From: a bacterium | Lineage (GTDB): Bacteria; UBA8248 | NCBI GenBank assembly: GCA_965219955.1 | Contig: OZ244799.1 | Span: 992,001-1,056,000, forward strand | Direction: 5' to 3' | Length of the DNA stretch: 64,000 bases | In this document: piece after piece, positions 25,756-31,285 of the stretch | How the letters are laid out: each line of letters opens with the position of its first letter | Numbering within the stretch: position 1 is the stretch's first letter | The notes under the pieces: model-generated | What the model was told of the DNA's origin: nothing | Databases searched by the model: none | What the model saw: the letters and a program-made list of their open reading frames with translations, nothing else | Program-made: the position numbers and the translations under genes

Positions 25756-25880
25756 GTCTTTCTCCTTTCGCTTCACATCATAAGGCGATGCGACATGAAA
25801 ATGTAGCACACCGGGAATATATTGGGAGGTTGTCGGGAATATGACGAAGAGAAAAAAACGGGGAACCGCTTTAATGGGGA

Positions 25881-25913
25881 ATTCTTGACAAATTTGTTTG
25901 GGAATTATAGTCT
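25881..25913 (+). promoter_or_regulatory. Sigma70-type promoter with overlapping Rrf2/IscR-like operator for the sulfur operon
   Basis: TTGACA (25885-25890), N17, TAGTCT (25908-25913); ATTCTTGACAAATTTGTTTGGGAAT (25881-25905) resembles IscR type-1 sites; operon ends in an Rrf2 gene. Confidence 0.6.
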
Positions 25914-25957
25914 CACGCTCGGCTGGTTCGGTGTAAAAGGATTGGAAGGGCACTCTC

Positions 25958-26917
25958 ATGGCATTGGGCACCCGGGGCCGTCCGCCCCAGATTCTGAGGG
26001 CGCTTCCCTCGCTCATCGATCGCATCGGAGGCACGAGCCTCGTCCAGTTGCAGCGTCTTCCCGATGCTTCCGGCGCGCGCGTGTTCGCCAAGCTCGAGCA
26101 ATACAACCCCGGCGGGAGCGTGAAGGACAGAATCGCGCTCAGCATGGTGCTCGACGGCGAGCGGCGCGGCCTCCTGAAGCCCGGCGGGACGATCATCGAG
26201 CCCACGAGTGGCAACACGGGCATTGGCTTGGCGCTCATCGGCGCCATTCGCGGCTACAGGACGATCATCGTGCTCAGCAAGAGCATGAGCCACGAGCGCA
26301 ACTCCCTGCTCACGGGCTACGGGGCCGAGGTGGTCTTCAGCTCCAGCGAGGGCGGCATGTACGGCTCGCTCGTGCTGGCCGAAGCCATCCTGGAGGAGAA
26401 CCCGGACTACTTCATGCCCCAGCAGTTCAACAACCCGGCCAACCCGGAGATCCACCGCAGGACCACGGCGCGCGAGATCCTGCGCGACATGGGCGCGGAA
26501 TCGGTGGACGCCTTCGTGGCGGGCGTGGGGACGGGAGGCACCATCACGGGCGTGGGTGAGGTCCTGAAGGAGAGAAGGCCGGAAACGCTCGTCATCGGCG
26601 TGGAGCCCGCCGCGTCCCCCGTTCTCACGGGCGGGGAACCCGGCCCGCACCAGATTCAGGGGATCGGCGCGGGCTTCGTGCCTGCGGTGTTGAACCGGGC
26701 GATCATCGACGAGGTGATGCCGGTGAGCGATTCGGACGCGTATGAGGTGAGCAAGGCCCTGAGCCGGGAGGAGGGCATGGCCGCAGGCATTTCGGCGGGA
26801 GCGGCGGTAAGCGCGGCTCTTGAGGTGGCGCGGCGGATGGGGCCTGAGGAAAACGTGGTGGTCGTCATTCCCGACGGCTGGGAGAGATATTATAGTCTGG
26901 AGCAGCATTTTCGTTAG
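25958..26917 (+). CDS. cysK: Cysteine synthase A-like PLP enzyme
   Basis: NPGGSVKDR, EPTSGNTG, GVGTGGT, HQIQGIGAGF. Confidence 0.88.
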   Translation: MALGTRGRPPQILRALPSLIDRIGGTSLVQLQRLPDASGARVFAKLEQYNPGGSVKDRIALSMVLDGERRGLLKPGGTIIEPTSGNTGIGLALIGAIRGYRTIIVLSKSMSHERNSLLTGYGAEVVFSSSEGGMYGSLVLAEAILEENPDYFMPQQFNNPANPEIHRRTTAREILRDMGAESVDAFVAGVGTGGTITGVGEVLKERRPETLVIGVEPAASPVLTGGEPGPHQIQGIGAGFVPAVLNRAIIDEVMPVSDSDAYEVSKALSREEGMAAGISAGAAVSAALEVARRMGPEENVVVVIPDGWERYYSLEQHFR

Positions 26918-26970
26918 GCAACTTACTTCAGCATCCCCGGAGAGCGGGGTTTTCAGATCAGGAGAGAGAA

Positions 26971-27249
26971 ATGGCGGTAACGGTTCGTATTCCGACACCT
27001 TTACAGGAGTTCACACAGCAGCAGGACGCCGTGGAGATCGCGGGCGCGGACGTGAAGGAAGTGCTCGCGAACCTCGACAGCCAGTTCGCGGGCATCGGCC
27101 AGCGCCTCTATGACGAGGAGGGCAAGCTGCGGCGTTTCGTGAACATTTACGTGAACCAGGAGGACATCCGCTTCCTGCAGGGAGAGGGAACGGCGGTGAG
27201 CGATGGAGATGAGGTCTCCATCGTGCCGGCCATCGCGGGCGGCCTGTAA
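26971..27249 (+). CDS. MoaD/ThiS-family ubiquitin-like sulfur carrier (CysO-like), C-terminus AGG-L
   Basis: VRIPTPL..RRFVNIYVNQEDIRFL..SIVPAIAGGL. Confidence 0.92.
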   Translation: MAVTVRIPTPLQEFTQQQDAVEIAGADVKEVLANLDSQFAGIGQRLYDEEGKLRRFVNIYVNQEDIRFLQGEGTAVSDGDEVSIVPAIAGGL

Positions 27250-27281
27250 TCGTCCGCAAACCCCGAGAGGAGAGTCGCCCC

Positions 27282-27932
27282 TTGGGCTTGAGCGAAGAGC
27301 AGATTCAGCGCTACAGCCGCCACATTCTGCTCCCTGGTGTGGGAGGAGTCGGGCAGGAGCGCCTGCTGGCCTCTTCCGTCCTCATTGCCTATTCGGAGGA
27401 TGAGGAGAGTGCTGCGCTCACCGCCCTGGCGTATCTGGCGGCTGCGGGCGTGGGCCGGATCGGCTGGTGTCCGCTCGATGGGGGCGACGGGCTCAAGCAG
27501 AAATCGCCGCTCTCCGCCTTCTATGGCGGCAGCCTGGGAGGTGGCCTCAAGAGGTTCAACCCCGATACGAGGCTGGTTCCCGTTCGACCGGACGAGGGAG
27601 CAGGGGAGGTTTTCGACGTCCTCATCCGGCTGGGCGATGAAGGAGCCTCAGATGATGAGAGATTCGAGGCTTCGGCGAAAGCCGCGCTGCGAGGCGTCTC
27701 CCGTGGGGAGGCCGGAGAAATTCTCGAGGGACCCGGCGGTTTCGGGGAGCCGGACGCAATACCATCTCCGAGGGGCGCATCGACAGTGGCGGCCCAGGGC
27801 GCTTTGGGCGCATGGCTGGCCGCGAGAGCCTTGCGGCATCTGGTGGATGAAATGGAAACAGTGGGGTCGACTGCGCAGGCCCGATTCGATTTTTCGCACG
27901 GCCTGATGGAGGCGCGTGCGAACCTTTCCTGA
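27282..27932 (+). CDS. Degenerate ThiF/MoeB-family protein (keeps RYSRH, lacks ATP-binding motifs)
   Basis: EEQIQRYSRHILLPGVGGVGQERL and YLAAAGVGRI present; no GxGxxG, NLxRQ or CxxC. Confidence 0.8.
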   Translation: MGLSEEQIQRYSRHILLPGVGGVGQERLLASSVLIAYSEDEESAALTALAYLAAAGVGRIGWCPLDGGDGLKQKSPLSAFYGGSLGGGLKRFNPDTRLVPVRPDEGAGEVFDVLIRLGDEGASDDERFEASAKAALRGVSRGEAGEILEGPGGFGEPDAIPSPRGASTVAAQGALGAWLAARALRHLVDEMETVGSTAQARFDFSHGLMEARANLS

Positions 27933-27965
27933 GATTTTCAGGAGCTAAGTGCGAGGGCCATACCA

Positions 27966-28904
27966 ATGGTCGAATCGACGGTGGAGAATCCCGCGAGCGC
28001 GTTCAGAAATTTAGAGGATTCCCCAATCATCAAGTGTATCGGCAACACCCCTCTGCTGGAAGTCAAGCTGTTCGAGAGCGAGTTCCCGGACGTGGAGGTC
28101 TACGCCAAGGCGGAGTGGTTCAACCCGGGCGGCTCGGTGAAGGACAGGCCGGCGCTCTTCATGGTGAAGGACGGCCTGGAAACGGGAGCGTTGCGCCCCG
28201 GCAGGATTCTGCTCGATTCCACGAGCGGCAACACCGGCATCGCCTACGCCATGATCGGCGCGGCACTGGGGATTCCGGTGCGCCTCGTCCTGCCTGCGAA
28301 CGCGAGCGACGAACGCAAGGCGACCTTGAAGGGCTACGGGGCCGAGATCGTTTTCTCGGACCCCCTGGAGGGCTCGGACGGCGCGCAGCGCCTCGCGGCG
28401 AAGATGTATCAGGACGAGCCGGAAAAATACTTTTTGCCCTGCCAATACGACAACCCGGCGAACCCGCTCGCCCACGTCGAGACCACGGCGTCCGAGATTC
28501 TCGAGCAGACGGGTGGCCGCGTGGAGCACTTCGTCGCGGGTCTCGGCACTACCGGCACCCTGGTGGGCACGGGGCGCGGCCTCAAGGCGAGAAAACCCGA
28601 CGTCGTGGTGCATGCGGTCATGCCGTCGGAATCGTTTCACGGCCTGGAGGGCATGAAGCATATCCCCACGGCCATTCGCCCGAAGATTTACGATGAGAGC
28701 GTGCACGACAACCTGATTCCGGCGAGCACCGAGGAGAGCTACGAGCTCGCCGAGCGCATCGCGAAAGAAGAGGGTCTCTTCATCGGCCACTCGGCAGGCG
28801 CCGCGCTCGTGGGCGTGCGCGAGGTGGCGAAGCAGATAGGCAAGGGCGTTATCGTCACCCTGTTCCCCGACGGGGGGGACAGGTACCTGAGCGAAGCGCG
28901 CTAG
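27966..28904 (+). CDS. cysM: CysM-like (sulfur-carrier dependent) cysteine synthase
   Basis: NPGGSVKDR, DSTSGNTG, GLGTTGT, GLEGMKH, PDGGDRYLS; context of carrier plus JAB. Confidence 0.82.
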   Translation: MVESTVENPASAFRNLEDSPIIKCIGNTPLLEVKLFESEFPDVEVYAKAEWFNPGGSVKDRPALFMVKDGLETGALRPGRILLDSTSGNTGIAYAMIGAALGIPVRLVLPANASDERKATLKGYGAEIVFSDPLEGSDGAQRLAAKMYQDEPEKYFLPCQYDNPANPLAHVETTASEILEQTGGRVEHFVAGLGTTGTLVGTGRGLKARKPDVVVHAVMPSESFHGLEGMKHIPTAIRPKIYDESVHDNLIPASTEESYELAERIAKEEGLFIGHSAGAALVGVREVAKQIGKGVIVTLFPDGGDRYLSEAR

Positions 28905-28906
28905 GA

Positions 28907-29213
28907 GGGGGTGTTGAAAAAGTCCCGTGGAGCGATTTTGGTTGAGCGCCCGGTCTTGAAGTTCACTCCCCCCTTGAGGGGGTCGGGCTTCCCGAGGGGA
29001 AAGCCCGACAGAAGCCGAGCGTTTTTTGCGAAGGCTGATGCGGTGGGGGGTAAAATGCGTTTTATCGCCACTCCGAATTATACCCCCCACCGAATCGCTT
29101 TCGGGCTTACGCCCTCAGCTCTTCGACTCCCCCTCAAGGGGGGAGTGATTTTTCTCTCTCGTCGGTCAGTTACATACGACAAATCCAGAGTTTCGGACTT
29201 TTTCAACAACCCC
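28907..29213. mobile_element. Non-autonomous TIR-bounded (MITE-like) cassette 1
   Basis: GGGGGTGTTGAAAAAGTCC (28907-28925) / GGACTTTTTCAACAACCCC (29195-29213), 18 of 19 inverted match; internal CACTCCCCCCTTGAGGGGG...CCCCCTCAAGGGGGGAGTG palindrome. Confidence 0.8.
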
Positions 29214-29226
29214 GAGGAGGCTTGGT

Positions 29227-29721
29227 TTGCGTCTGAATCGTGAACAGGTGGAGGCGATGCACCGCCATGCGCGCGAGGCGTATCCCGATGAGTGCTGCGG
29301 GCTGATCATCGGGCCTCCGCGCGGGCGGGGTGGTGCGGAAGAAACGCTCGCCCTCCTGCCTTGTAAGAACGTGCAGAACGAGATGCACGAGAAGGACCCC
29401 GAATTTTATCCCCGGACGGCGCGGCGCGCATTCCTGATCGATCCCTTCGAGTTCGAGCGCATCGTGAGAGAGGCGGAGAAGGGGGGCGAGGTGGTGCGCG
29501 GCATCTTCCACAGCCACCCGGACGAGGACGCCTATTTTTCGCAGGAAGACGTGGATGCGGCGGTTCCTTTCGGGGATATCCCGTCGTTCCCGGAGGCGGA
29601 GCACGTCGTCATGAGCGTGCGCGAAGGCGCCGTACTCGGGCAGAAGGTGTATTCCTGGGACGCGGAGCAAAAGACCTTTATCGAGAGCGATCTGGAAATT
29701 CTCGAGGAGGCGGGCGCGTGA
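29227..29721 (+). CDS. JAB/Mov34 (M67) metalloprotease, Mec-like
   Basis: YPDECCG, HSHPDEDAYFSQED (HxH-x7-S-x2-D). Confidence 0.92.
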   Translation: MRLNREQVEAMHRHAREAYPDECCGLIIGPPRGRGGAEETLALLPCKNVQNEMHEKDPEFYPRTARRAFLIDPFEFERIVREAEKGGEVVRGIFHSHPDEDAYFSQEDVDAAVPFGDIPSFPEAEHVVMSVREGAVLGQKVYSWDAEQKTFIESDLEILEEAGA

Positions 29722-30527
29722 GCCTGCATCATCCTCGCGCGGGGTTGCCCGGTGAAGCGCCGCCGGCGGCCGTGAACGCATCCACGGCGCGCGTGATCGA
29801 TAAAAGCGCACTGGCGGGTTCATCCGTCCTCATCGTGGGCGTCGGCGGCCTGGGCTGCCCTGCGGTGCTCGCCCTTGCGGCTGCGGGCGTGGGGCGGGTC
29901 GGCCTTGCGGACCACGACACGGTGACGCTCGACAACCTCGCGCGCCAGATTCTCCACCGCACCGAAGACATCGGCCGCCTGAAGGTGGACTCGGGCGCCG
30001 ATTCCATATTCAGGCTCTCCGCCCAAGTAGCGGTGGACAAGATTCCCCAAAGGCTCACGCGCGAGAACGCCGCCAGAGTCATCGCGCCCTATGACGTAGT
30101 AATCGACGGCAGCGACAACCTCGCGGCCAAACTCGCGCTGAACGACGCCTGCGCCGCCACGGGCAAGCCGTGGGTGATGGGCGGCGTTTTGCGATTTTTC
30201 GGCCAGGTGATGACAATTCTGCCGGGCCGGAGCGCGTGTCTGAGGTGCCTGGTGGGCGAGGAGGGCGCGGACGTCCGCGGACTCGATTGCGGGGATGCGG
30301 GCGTTTTCGGCGCGGTGGCCGGTTTCGTGGGCATGGCGCAGGCAGCGGACGCGCTGCGGGTCCTCAAGGGGCTTGCGCCGGCCTGGTCGAACAGGCTGAT
30401 GACGGCCGATTTACGGAAAAACGCCGTCGGGAGCGTGCGCGTGGTCCGGGATCCGGATTGTCCCGCCTGCGCGCTCGCCGGGAGCGGGCAAACGAAAATC
30501 CCCGCGGGGCGGGGAGCGCTCGTTTAG
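29718..30527 (+). CDS. ThiF/MoeB-family adenylyltransferase (E1-like) lacking N-terminal RYxR motif
   Basis: GVGGLG, DHD..DNLARQ, K, DGSDN, CLRC, Cys in LDCGDAG, CPAC; no rhodanese domain. Confidence 0.92.
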   Translation: MSLHHPRAGLPGEAPPAAVNASTARVIDKSALAGSSVLIVGVGGLGCPAVLALAAAGVGRVGLADHDTVTLDNLARQILHRTEDIGRLKVDSGADSIFRLSAQVAVDKIPQRLTRENAARVIAPYDVVIDGSDNLAAKLALNDACAATGKPWVMGGVLRFFGQVMTILPGRSACLRCLVGEEGADVRGLDCGDAGVFGAVAGFVGMAQAADALRVLKGLAPAWSNRLMTADLRKNAVGSVRVVRDPDCPACALAGSGQTKIPAGRGALV

Positions 30528-30565
30528 CGAATGGGGCAGGGAGAGACGATGAGAGGATGCCGCCG

Positions 30566-31018
30566 ATGAAGATATCGACCAAAGGGCGATACGCCGTGCT
30601 CGCCATGATAGAGCTGGCCCGGCATTCGCAGACGCATCCCGTGCCCCTGCCGCAGATTGCCGGCAAGCTCGGCATCAGCCAGCACTATCTCGAACAGTTG
30701 TTCGTGAAGATGCGCAGGGCCTCTCTGGTGAGCAGCACGCGGGGGCCGGGAGGCGGCTACATCCTCGCGCTGCCGCCCTCTGGGATCAACATGCGCGACG
30801 TTCTCTGCGCGGTGGGCGAGACGATTCAGCCCGTCGATTGCGGCGAAGAACCTCCCTCGGCGCCGTGTCCGAACATTTCGGTGTGCGGAAGCCGCGCGCT
30901 TTGGAAAAAACTCGAAGACGCCATAGACAAAACGCTGCGCGAGACCACGCTGGAGGAGTTGAGCGCGCCGCCGCCCGGCTCTGGCGTCCGGCTGCCCAAC
31001 TTCGAGGTGGGTATCTAG
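30566..31018 (+). CDS. Rrf2-family (IscR/CymR-like) regulator with three Cys
   Basis: MKISTKGRYAV, YLEQLF, STRGPGGGY, C-x8-C-x5-C. Confidence 0.93.
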   Translation: MKISTKGRYAVLAMIELARHSQTHPVPLPQIAGKLGISQHYLEQLFVKMRRASLVSSTRGPGGGYILALPPSGINMRDVLCAVGETIQPVDCGEEPPSAPCPNISVCGSRALWKKLEDAIDKTLRETTLEELSAPPPGSGVRLPNFEVGI

Positions 31019-31054
31019 GATTGCTACGAAGAATTTTCTAAGTGGAAATTCTCT

Positions 31055-31285
31055 TTAGCTTTTTCTGTCTTGTTTAGCCCATCCCCTCTTAAACCACTCT
31101 CTTTCCTCTATTTCTTCGTCTATCAGTCTTTCAATTTCATTCTGGGCTTTAGGATTGTCTTTGTATTTGATCCACATGGCATCGAGTTTATTTAATGCAT
31201 CGTTAAAATCTCCTAAAACTTCATCTCGCTCTTCGTCCTTTTTCAGGGTTTCTTCGTCCGGCCTATTTGGTCCCACCCATGACAT
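31055..31285 (-). CDS. Small acidic hypothetical protein in AT-rich islet
   Basis: 76 aa ORF with AGGAG upstream; AT-rich codon usage. Confidence 0.6.
   Translation of the reverse strand: MSWVGPNRPDEETLKKDEERDEVLGDFNDALNKLDAMWIKYKDNPKAQNEIERLIDEEIEEREWFKRGWAKQDRKS

Follow-up and report, generated by a model that had tools for sequence, protein, structure and literature searches.

A seven-gene block on the plus strand of a UBA8248 bacterium encodes two proteins related to E1 enzymes, here named aE1 and pE1, together with a ThiS/MoaD-fold sulfur carrier. The window, which is the whole stretch of DNA analysed, spans 64,000 nucleotides (GCA_965219955.1, contig OZ244799.1, positions 992,001-1,056,000). 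aE1 carries the catalytic motifs of a ThiF/MoeB-type adenylyltransferase and lacks the N-terminal arginine-finger helix; pE1 keeps that helix and has lost the catalytic motifs. The two probably associate as a dimer of MoeB type that is asymmetric and has one active site, with aE1 as the catalytic and pE1 as the non-catalytic subunit. A preliminary description of the window, made from its letters alone, had placed the two open reading frames (ORFs) at 27282-27932 (pE1) and 29718-30527 (aE1), and both are present exactly there.

The catalytic copy, aE1

aE1 matches PF00899 with 208.9 bits against a cut-off of 28.1, over profile positions 16-238, and aligns with residues 26-248 of MoeB and 24-244 of ThiF in PDB sequences (similarity at the 1e-39 level). 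It is colinear with both proteins from end to end, has no inserted catalytic-Cys domain, and contains no rhodanese domain recognised by Pfam or NCBIfam. In an alignment of 20 sequences, comprising the window's protein and 19 of 26 further orthologue ORFs, the G41/G43/G44/G46 loop, D65, R76-Q77, K89 and D133 are invariant (20/20), as are C174/C177/C248/C251 and the crossover-loop residue C191. By alignment R76 corresponds to MoeB R73, given as a phosphate ligand in the matched passages of PMC12355090, and C191 aligns with the ThiF Cys named Cys184 in excerpts of a review (PMC12596934). The alignments and the PF00899 match therefore bear out the preliminary description, which had assigned aE1 all of the catalytic and zinc motifs plus a candidate active Cys and had noted the lack of RYxR.

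aE1 ORFs could be delimited at 27 of 30 loci, two others running off their contigs and one being missed by the search pattern. All 27 are without RYxR, and in all of them the start overlaps the stop of the upstream JAMM gene and lies behind a GAGG-type site. The distance from the start to the G-loop is 8-14 residues in 15 ORFs and 29-37 in the other 12. Members of the window's own subclade have a poorly conserved N-terminal extension (12/27); its length is about 25 residues in all but one of these ORFs, which has 17. Among the nearest E1s outside the clade (n=13, 43-52% identical), nine have RYxR[QHN], two have RYxYN and two are helix-less; the presence of RYxR[QHN] in 9/13 of this outgroup indicates that the truncation of aE1 is derived. 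aE1 may work like the core of an asymmetric E1, but a canonical E1 it is not.

The degenerate copy, pE1

As the preliminary description had it, pE1 retains RYSRH and has lost the G-loop, NLxRQ and both CxxC pairs, on motif and alignment evidence; the catalytic Asp and Lys are also absent. At the position expected for the G-loop the sequence reads ...LIAYSEDEESAAL, with the acidic stretch AYSEDEES, and no CxxC pair is present because pE1 has a single Cys (C63). The GxGxxG loop, the Arg and Gln of NLxRQ, the Lys and the catalytic Asp are likewise missing from all 22 homologues in the pE1 alignment, so that pE1 is related to E1 by fold and is no active adenylyltransferase.

Conventional searches recognise little more than the N-terminus of pE1. 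No Pfam family matches it at E ≤ 0.1, the NCBIfam models for MoeB, ThiF and UbaA cover residues 3-66 only (best 43.8 bits against a cut-off of 633), and matches to PDB sequences, those of Uba4 (2.6e-7), MoeB (0.006) and ThiF, are confined to residues 2-66, with pE1 R13 aligned to MoeB R14. Comparison of the pE1 profile (23 homologues) with the aE1 profile (20 orthologues) using hhalign gave a probability of 88.9 and an E value of 2.4e-6, pairing columns 25-152 with 29-164. An AlphaFold2 model of pE1, of moderate confidence only (predicted local distance difference test score (pLDDT) 69.4, predicted template modelling score (pTM) 0.73), is matched best among PDB structures in Foldseek by Uba4, ThiF and MoeB (E 4e-9 to 1.5e-6, query TM-score (TMq) 0.6-0.66, about 225 columns) and also matches SAE1, the inactive subunit of the SUMO E1. 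By the profile comparison and this model, pE1 is a complete, degenerate E1 domain and no fragment.

The homologues of pE1 are 39-88% identical overall, and the RYSRH motif is nearly constant among them: no variation occurs at R10, Y11, S12 or H14, and 22/23 have R13. Other invariant positions among the 23 are L16-P18, G21, G24-Q25, N93 and D95, and parts of a C-terminal VGSTxQARFD motif. Such constancy of RYSRH at this level of overall identity shows that the motif pattern is not due to chance. The median pairwise ratio of nonsynonymous to synonymous substitutions (dN/dS) is 0.35 for pE1 (206 pairs); aE1 has a value of 0.24, and the remaining five genes of the block lie at 0.08-0.14. The pE1 gene is therefore alive under purifying selection, with relaxed constraint.

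In a search of 5.8 billion proteins, about 69 clusters were listed that match most of the length of pE1. Those named after an organism all belong to Nitrospinae or Nitrospinota, save one labelled just 'bacterium'. An exhaustive search of representatives at E ≤ 1e-20 returned six proteins, of which P0040, P0121 and P0069 are full-length and three are fragments of 119-153 amino acids. From these distributions pE1 appears to be both conserved and clade-restricted. The names of the clusters are mostly hypothetical protein, with one JGI entry called 'adenylyltransferase/sulfurtransferase'; together with the missing Pfam match, this departs from the expectation of the preliminary description that routine annotation would label both proteins ThiF. 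Among 3206 candidate longer proteins, none contained pE1 residues 62-216 at E ≤ 0.001, which is weak evidence on fused forms.

Co-occurrence and gene order across the phylum

The phylum sample comprised 51 genomes, the window's own included, and aE1 orthologues were called at E ≤ 1e-60. A profile search found full-length pE1 in 30/51 genomes. An aE1 orthologue is present in 29 of these 30 and in none of the 21 others; in the sole exception (G022) pE1 lies on a contig of 3.2 kb, and this contig breaks off after cysM. The 21 other genomes have just canonical E1s, of roughly 400 amino acids and 35-40% identical to aE1, reduced to an E1 fragment at a contig edge in G040 and to none in G043. The window's genome also encodes a canonical rhodanese-MoeB elsewhere (399 amino acids, with RYSRH). 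The pE1 frame is open and of full length in 28/30 genomes, and two drafts have one in-frame stop. pE1 and the N-terminally truncated aE1 thus co-occur strictly within the phylum. A survey of this kind had been proposed beforehand as a check, and the degenerate copy proved to be conserved in related operons, where it is paired with the helix-less aE1.

The gene order cysK, carrier, pE1, cysM, JAMM, aE1, Rrf2 is the same in all related loci where the contigs permit it to be read. pE1 always lies directly between the carrier gene and cysM, and the overlap of the JAMM stop with the aE1 start is kept in the orthologues.

Predicted heterodimer

Structure prediction for aE1, pE1 and ATP together gave a complex score of 0.92, while the best of three controls scored 0.00. 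Of solved complexes 58/80 reached this mark, and of mismatched pairs 2/110. Contacts agreed between runs at a level of at least 93%, and the pLDDT of the partner was at least 77. The predicted interface has three parts. In one, pE1 residues 6, 9-14, 16-18 and 20 pack against aE1 71-83, the NLARQ phosphate-binding segment, with pE1 9-14 lying against aE1 74-76. In another, the long helix 194-214 of aE1 packs against pE1 168-185, and the last is formed by the conserved tail of pE1 (200-213). Conserved positions are enriched at this interface: its 55 residues include 23 of the 51 pE1 positions with at least 90% conservation (odds ratio 3.4, Fisher p 3.6e-4), and leaving out pE1 residues 1-30 still gives an odds ratio of 2.8 (p 0.009). 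Structure prediction was another of the checks that had been suggested, with the expectation that the finger would reach the site of the partner; in the modelled heterodimer the RYSRH helix is indeed placed on the phosphate-binding segment of aE1.

Proposed mechanism

In 29/30 loci the carrier ends in GG plus one or two extra residues (R 13, L 12, LY 2, VG 1 and G 1, of 30 loci), so trimming would be needed before adenylation, presumably by the JAMM protease. Removal of these residues would expose the GG terminus. pE1, in which both the interface for dimerisation and the RYSRH helix at the N-terminus are retained, would dock this helix on the NLARQ segment of aE1 and supply in trans R13, the equivalent of the MoeB R14 that aE1 has lost. 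The aE1-pE1 heterodimer would adenylate the carrier, thiocarboxylation would come next, and the invariant crossover-loop Cys191 may participate. The carrier thiocarboxylate would then presumably be used by the CysM-type enzyme to make cysteine, after which JAMM would release the cysteine. We infer the physical heterodimer, the role of the arginine and the chemistry; the motifs, fold model, conservation, co-occurrence and synteny are observations of this analysis. A catalytic need for the trans arginine is less certain than the dimer itself.

Relatives of pE1

pE1 has relatives in a wider class of degenerate ThiF-like proteins, represented by P0130, P0257, P0158, P0204, P0151, P0209, P0230, P0140, P0135, P0146 and P0221 and by the ORF L144:248-967. 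These proteins have 196-243 amino acids and retain ERYSRQ, GQ, YLAAAGVGR, NPD and both CxxC pairs; they lack NLxRQ, the Lys and the catalytic Asp, and score far under every NCBIfam cut-off. Where they are named, they come from Nitrospirota and Binatia. With a profile of pE1 residues 62-216, four of the 11 cross-phylum proteins reach 22-29 bits and the other seven 5.6-16.7 bits, compared with 4-15 bits for ordinary E1s and at most 4 bits for aE1 orthologues. Origin of pE1 by recent duplication of aE1 was rejected on these scores, and with it the preliminary description's picture of reciprocal motif loss between close paralogues.

Two loci illustrate the class and its surroundings. L144 (1-2833) carries genes for a cysteine-synthase-like protein, the degenerate ThiF-like protein, a radical-SAM protein (PF04055) and a transporter-like membrane protein. 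In the homologous operon of G481 (L148, G481:C2:264817-268563) a fully intact ThiF occupies the position of the degenerate protein, and a small ORF between the synthase and ThiF resembles what we take to be a NIL-type domain. A different case is G009, a genome of another family: the ORF behind its carrier gene (L146, G009:C474) has RYARH and an intact GLGGVG loop, is already without the acidic residue after strand 2 and without the NLxRQ region, and runs off the contig. In the same genome aE1 (L063/L147, G009:C274) is longer, with 336 amino acids, and is also without RYxR. To judge by its motifs, the ORF at the pE1 position in G009 looks like an earlier, less decayed stage.

Further searches for the degenerate class were less productive. 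A scan of genome contigs with the class alignment returned 80 loci, each of which encodes an ordinary E1 that has RYxR, the G-loop and NLxRQ; the scan thus added nothing on the genomic surroundings of the class. A metagenome scan with P0130 gave two short contigs only. In phylum-wide searches around three other genomes, the class alignment found no member among 151 and 201 genomes at the set thresholds, an outcome that says nothing about absence, and the third such search returned one intact ThiF in 201 genomes.

Alternative explanations

Several points weigh against an asymmetric dimer of aE1 and pE1. The matched passages of PMC13139853 describe ThiF R11 and MoeB R14 as trans arginine fingers that are yet not essential, state that E. 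coli TcdA has no Arg finger, and report that the R59A finger mutant of the yeast heterodimer Tcd1-Tcd2 lost just 26%; aE1 might therefore work alone. R13 of pE1 is replaced by His in one cluster (P0060), and two outgroup E1s about 50% identical to aE1, P0333 and P0343, are helix-less as well. The custom alignments and the ATP ligand fall outside the calibration of the complex score, and since solved MoeB and ThiF homodimers and SAE1-UBA2 exist, the pass may reflect likeness and not binding. ATP contacts are absent from the model output, so that the position of the arginine is deduced from neighbouring residues. The enrichment of conserved positions at the interface shares its alignment with the model and is not independent of it. 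The nearest relatives of pE1 are the cross-phylum degenerate proteins, and on L144, a 2.8-kb contig, no second E1 is in view, which suggests that dead E1 folds may have roles other than pairing.

Much of this evidence would fit a self-sufficient aE1 homodimer, with pE1 in some other non-catalytic role, such as bringing the carrier to the neighbouring CysM-type enzyme or acting as a regulator of aE1. The finger is reported to be non-essential in MoeB and ThiF and missing in TcdA (PMC13139853, matched passages), pE1 always sits directly between the carrier gene and cysM, and the degenerate protein of L144 adjoins cysteine-synthase-like and radical-SAM genes without a second E1 in view, where G481 has an intact ThiF. 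We nevertheless find this arrangement rather doubtful. The best-conserved parts of pE1 are the Arg-finger helix and the E1 dimer-interface helices, pE1 co-occurs strictly with the truncated aE1, the heterodimer model far outscored its controls, and L144 is so short that an E1 may lie beyond it. The heterodimer could also be real with pE1 as a purely structural half that stabilises aE1, its RYSRH helix serving for packing and not for catalysis. This shares the support of the heterodimer from co-occurrence, model and synteny, and agrees with the reported dispensability of the finger (PMC13139853, matched passages) and with R13H in one cluster; it is unlikely, as the invariance of R10, Y11, S12 and H14 despite drift to 39% identity exceeds the usual packing constraint.

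A partnership of aE1 with the canonical rhodanese-MoeB, as the source of both Arg finger and persulfide and with pE1 as an accessory, is suggested by the full-length rhodanese-MoeB in the genome and by the lack of a rhodanese domain in aE1 itself. We consider it very unlikely: canonical MoeB is found in all 51 genomes but G040 and G043, so it does not co-vary with aE1, and it is only 35% identical to aE1. That pE1 is a functionless, decaying remnant of a duplicated thiF is scarcely credible. Within the block its gene evolves fastest (42% identity, against 57% for aE1 and 77% for cysM) and has the highest dN/dS, but such decay is already contradicted by the frame open at full length in 28/30 genomes, by the dN/dS of 0.35 and by motifs that stay invariant across 39-88% identity.

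For the asymmetric dimer as the preliminary description had framed it, the degenerate E1 fold, the strict co-occurrence, the shared carrier operon and the modelled placement of the helix all speak in favour. The word 'obligate' in that description was too strong, because fingers are reported as non-essential for MoeB R14 and ThiF R11 and TcdA has none (PMC13139853, matched passages).

Organisation of the operon

The features of the block are listed in Table 1. Its first gene, cysK, and its last, for the Rrf2-family regulator, keep their positions in related genomes. No E2-like gene lies within the block according to the ORF list and a Pfam search, and no Rfam family matches 25800-31200 at E ≤ 0.1.

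Table 1. Features of the seven-gene block, in window coordinates.
Feature	Coordinates	Strand	Evidence
cysK-type O-acetylserine sulfhydrylase, first gene of the block	25958..26917	+	PF00291 257 bits; TIGR01139 cysK 393.8 bits vs cut-off 350.95 (passed)
ThiS/MoaD-fold sulfur-carrier precursor, CysO-like, C-terminus ...AIAGG-L	26971..27249	+	PF02597 64.6 bits
pE1, degenerate non-catalytic E1 adenylation-fold protein, 216 amino acids	27282..27932	+	motifs, alignments, AlphaFold2 model, Foldseek, dN/dS
cysM-type pyridoxal-5'-phosphate (PLP) enzyme	27966..28904	+	PF00291 219.7 bits; TIGR01138 cysM 340 bits, under cut-off 394.2
322-bp spacer between cysM and JAMM, dispersed repeat	28905..29226	.	repeat matches in own genome
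JAMM/Mec+-type metalloprotease	29227..29721	+	PF14464 72.3 bits; stop overlaps the GTG start of aE1 (GTGA)
aE1, active ThiF/MoeB-type adenylyltransferase, 269 amino acids, without RYxRQ helix, without rhodanese domain	29718..30527	+	family matches, PDB alignments
Rrf2-family (IscR/CymR-like) regulator, last gene of the block	about 30557..31018	+	PF02082 114 bits; reading frame checked

Contigs from RNA libraries overlap parts of the block. In run X1 a 553-nucleotide contig (15 differences, 1 gap) covers 26810-27361 and bridges cysK, the carrier gene and pE1, and a further contig, 27795-28051, bridges pE1 and cysM; in run X2 a contig lies within pE1 (27616-27757). These contigs come from relatives and do not demonstrate transcription, and the parts of the block that they leave uncovered carry no meaning.

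The spacer between cysM and JAMM is made up of a dispersed repeat that matches the window's own genome 76 times; in about 40 cases the identity is 87-98% across 140-260 bases. A long spacer (246-442 bp) is found only in the window's genome and in four near relatives (G017, G018, G026 and G027), and the remaining loci have about 10-25 bp there; the repeat is a recent insertion inside the operon. Among the RNA-library contigs, summed depth peaks over this spacer (X2, 383).

One genome, G030, has the whole pE1/aE1 block twice, on separate contigs (G030:C6 and G030:C8); its contamination is estimated at 16%, and the two copies may stem from two strains. The proteins P0303 (388 amino acids) and P0314 (393 amino acids) combine PF00899 with PF02082, as if aE1 had been run together with the downstream Rrf2 protein, which may be a genuine fusion or a gene-calling artefact.

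Relation to known E1 systems

In the eukaryotic heterodimeric E1s SAE1-UBA2 (SUMO) and NAE1/APPBP1-UBA3 (NEDD8), the subunit that lacks the ATP motifs is thought to complete the single active site of its partner with an N-terminal Arg. Like these enzymes, aE1 and pE1 are two polypeptides with the E1 adenylation fold, one of them without ATP motifs. Unlike them, the bacterial pair has no catalytic-Cys domain, ubiquitin-fold domain or E2, it presumably yields a thiocarboxylated carrier for making cysteine instead of a protein conjugate, and its origin is independent and limited to one bacterial clade. The eukaryotic SAE is called a pseudosymmetric heterodimer in the matched part of a review (PMC12355090).

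A bacterial E1 built from an inactive and an active adenylation domain is already on record in BilD, from the BilABCD antiviral system, whose inactive domain supplies Arg9 to the active one; the same 2023 preprint, in the passages matched, states that all known bacterial E1-like proteins besides BilD are homodimers (PMC10557695). BilD is one fused chain with a mobile Cys domain and works with an E2 in defence, whereas aE1 and pE1 are encoded separately, with cysM and JAMM between their genes, in an operon for a metabolic sulfur carrier. The preliminary description had presented the pair as a bacterial parallel to split E1s; this stands insofar as one degenerate and one active domain are encoded together, and is to be qualified insofar as an inactive domain joined to an active one was known from BilD. 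Bacterial E1 asymmetry is therefore known in fused form, and the two-gene pair in a cysteine operon would be a variant of it. Among ThiF-family proteins, the yeast ct6A dehydratase Tcd1-Tcd2, of ThiF/TcdA type, is also a heterodimer in which a partly degenerate subunit gives the Arg finger, Tcd1 supplying Arg59 to Tcd2; unlike aE1/pE1 it is eukaryotic, acts on tRNA, uses no ubiquitin-like carrier, and has a finger reported to be non-essential (PMC13139853, matched passages). aE1 shares the catalytic and zinc motifs of the MoeB and ThiF homodimers, and the predicted aE1-pE1 interface follows their dimer geometry. The MoeB and ThiF dimers consist of two active protomers that exchange their N-terminal Arg, whereas in aE1/pE1 each function would reside in a separate gene product.

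The CysO-CysM-Mec+-MoeZ pathway of cysteine synthesis has been studied in mycobacteria. The block resembles that pathway, and also the type 4c operon described by Iyer et al. 2006 (carrier, E1, JAB and cysteine synthase; PMC1779556, matched passages), in that a single operon brings together an E1, a JAB/JAMM peptidase, a cysteine synthase and a ThiS-like carrier. As far as the matched passages go, the E1 of CysO-type and type 4c systems is full-length and rhodanese-fused, whereas here aE1 is truncated, without rhodanese, and accompanied by pE1; the inactive forms mentioned there are E2-like domains only (PMC1779556). The words 'heterodimer' and 'inactive' are absent from a 2025 review of ThiF-like enzymes (PMC12596934). 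Literature searches, which did not cover Burroughs et al. 2009 on the E1-like superfamily or supplements, found no two-gene bacterial E1 and no account of pE1.

It is possible, and we put it forward tentatively, that bacteria independently evolved an obligate two-subunit E1 in a metabolic sulfur-carrier pathway, with a helix-less catalytic subunit and a dead subunit, kept chiefly for its helix, replacing a MoeB-like homodimer, and that pE1 is a branch of an unnamed cross-phylum pseudo-E1 family. Eukaryotic E1s are asymmetric, a dead domain serving a live one, and their rise from symmetric MoeB/ThiF dimers has been deduced mostly from end states. If the proposal is true, aE1 and pE1 would model, in a living bacterium, the transition from symmetric MoeB to the asymmetric eukaryotic E1. 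A confirmed pair, being small, soluble and metabolic, would offer a tractable means of testing the contributions of the trans Arg helix and of the dead subunit. Confirmation would further give a name to a conserved protein now labelled hypothetical, and would mean that annotation of the CysO-type cysteine pathway overlooks one component in this phylum.

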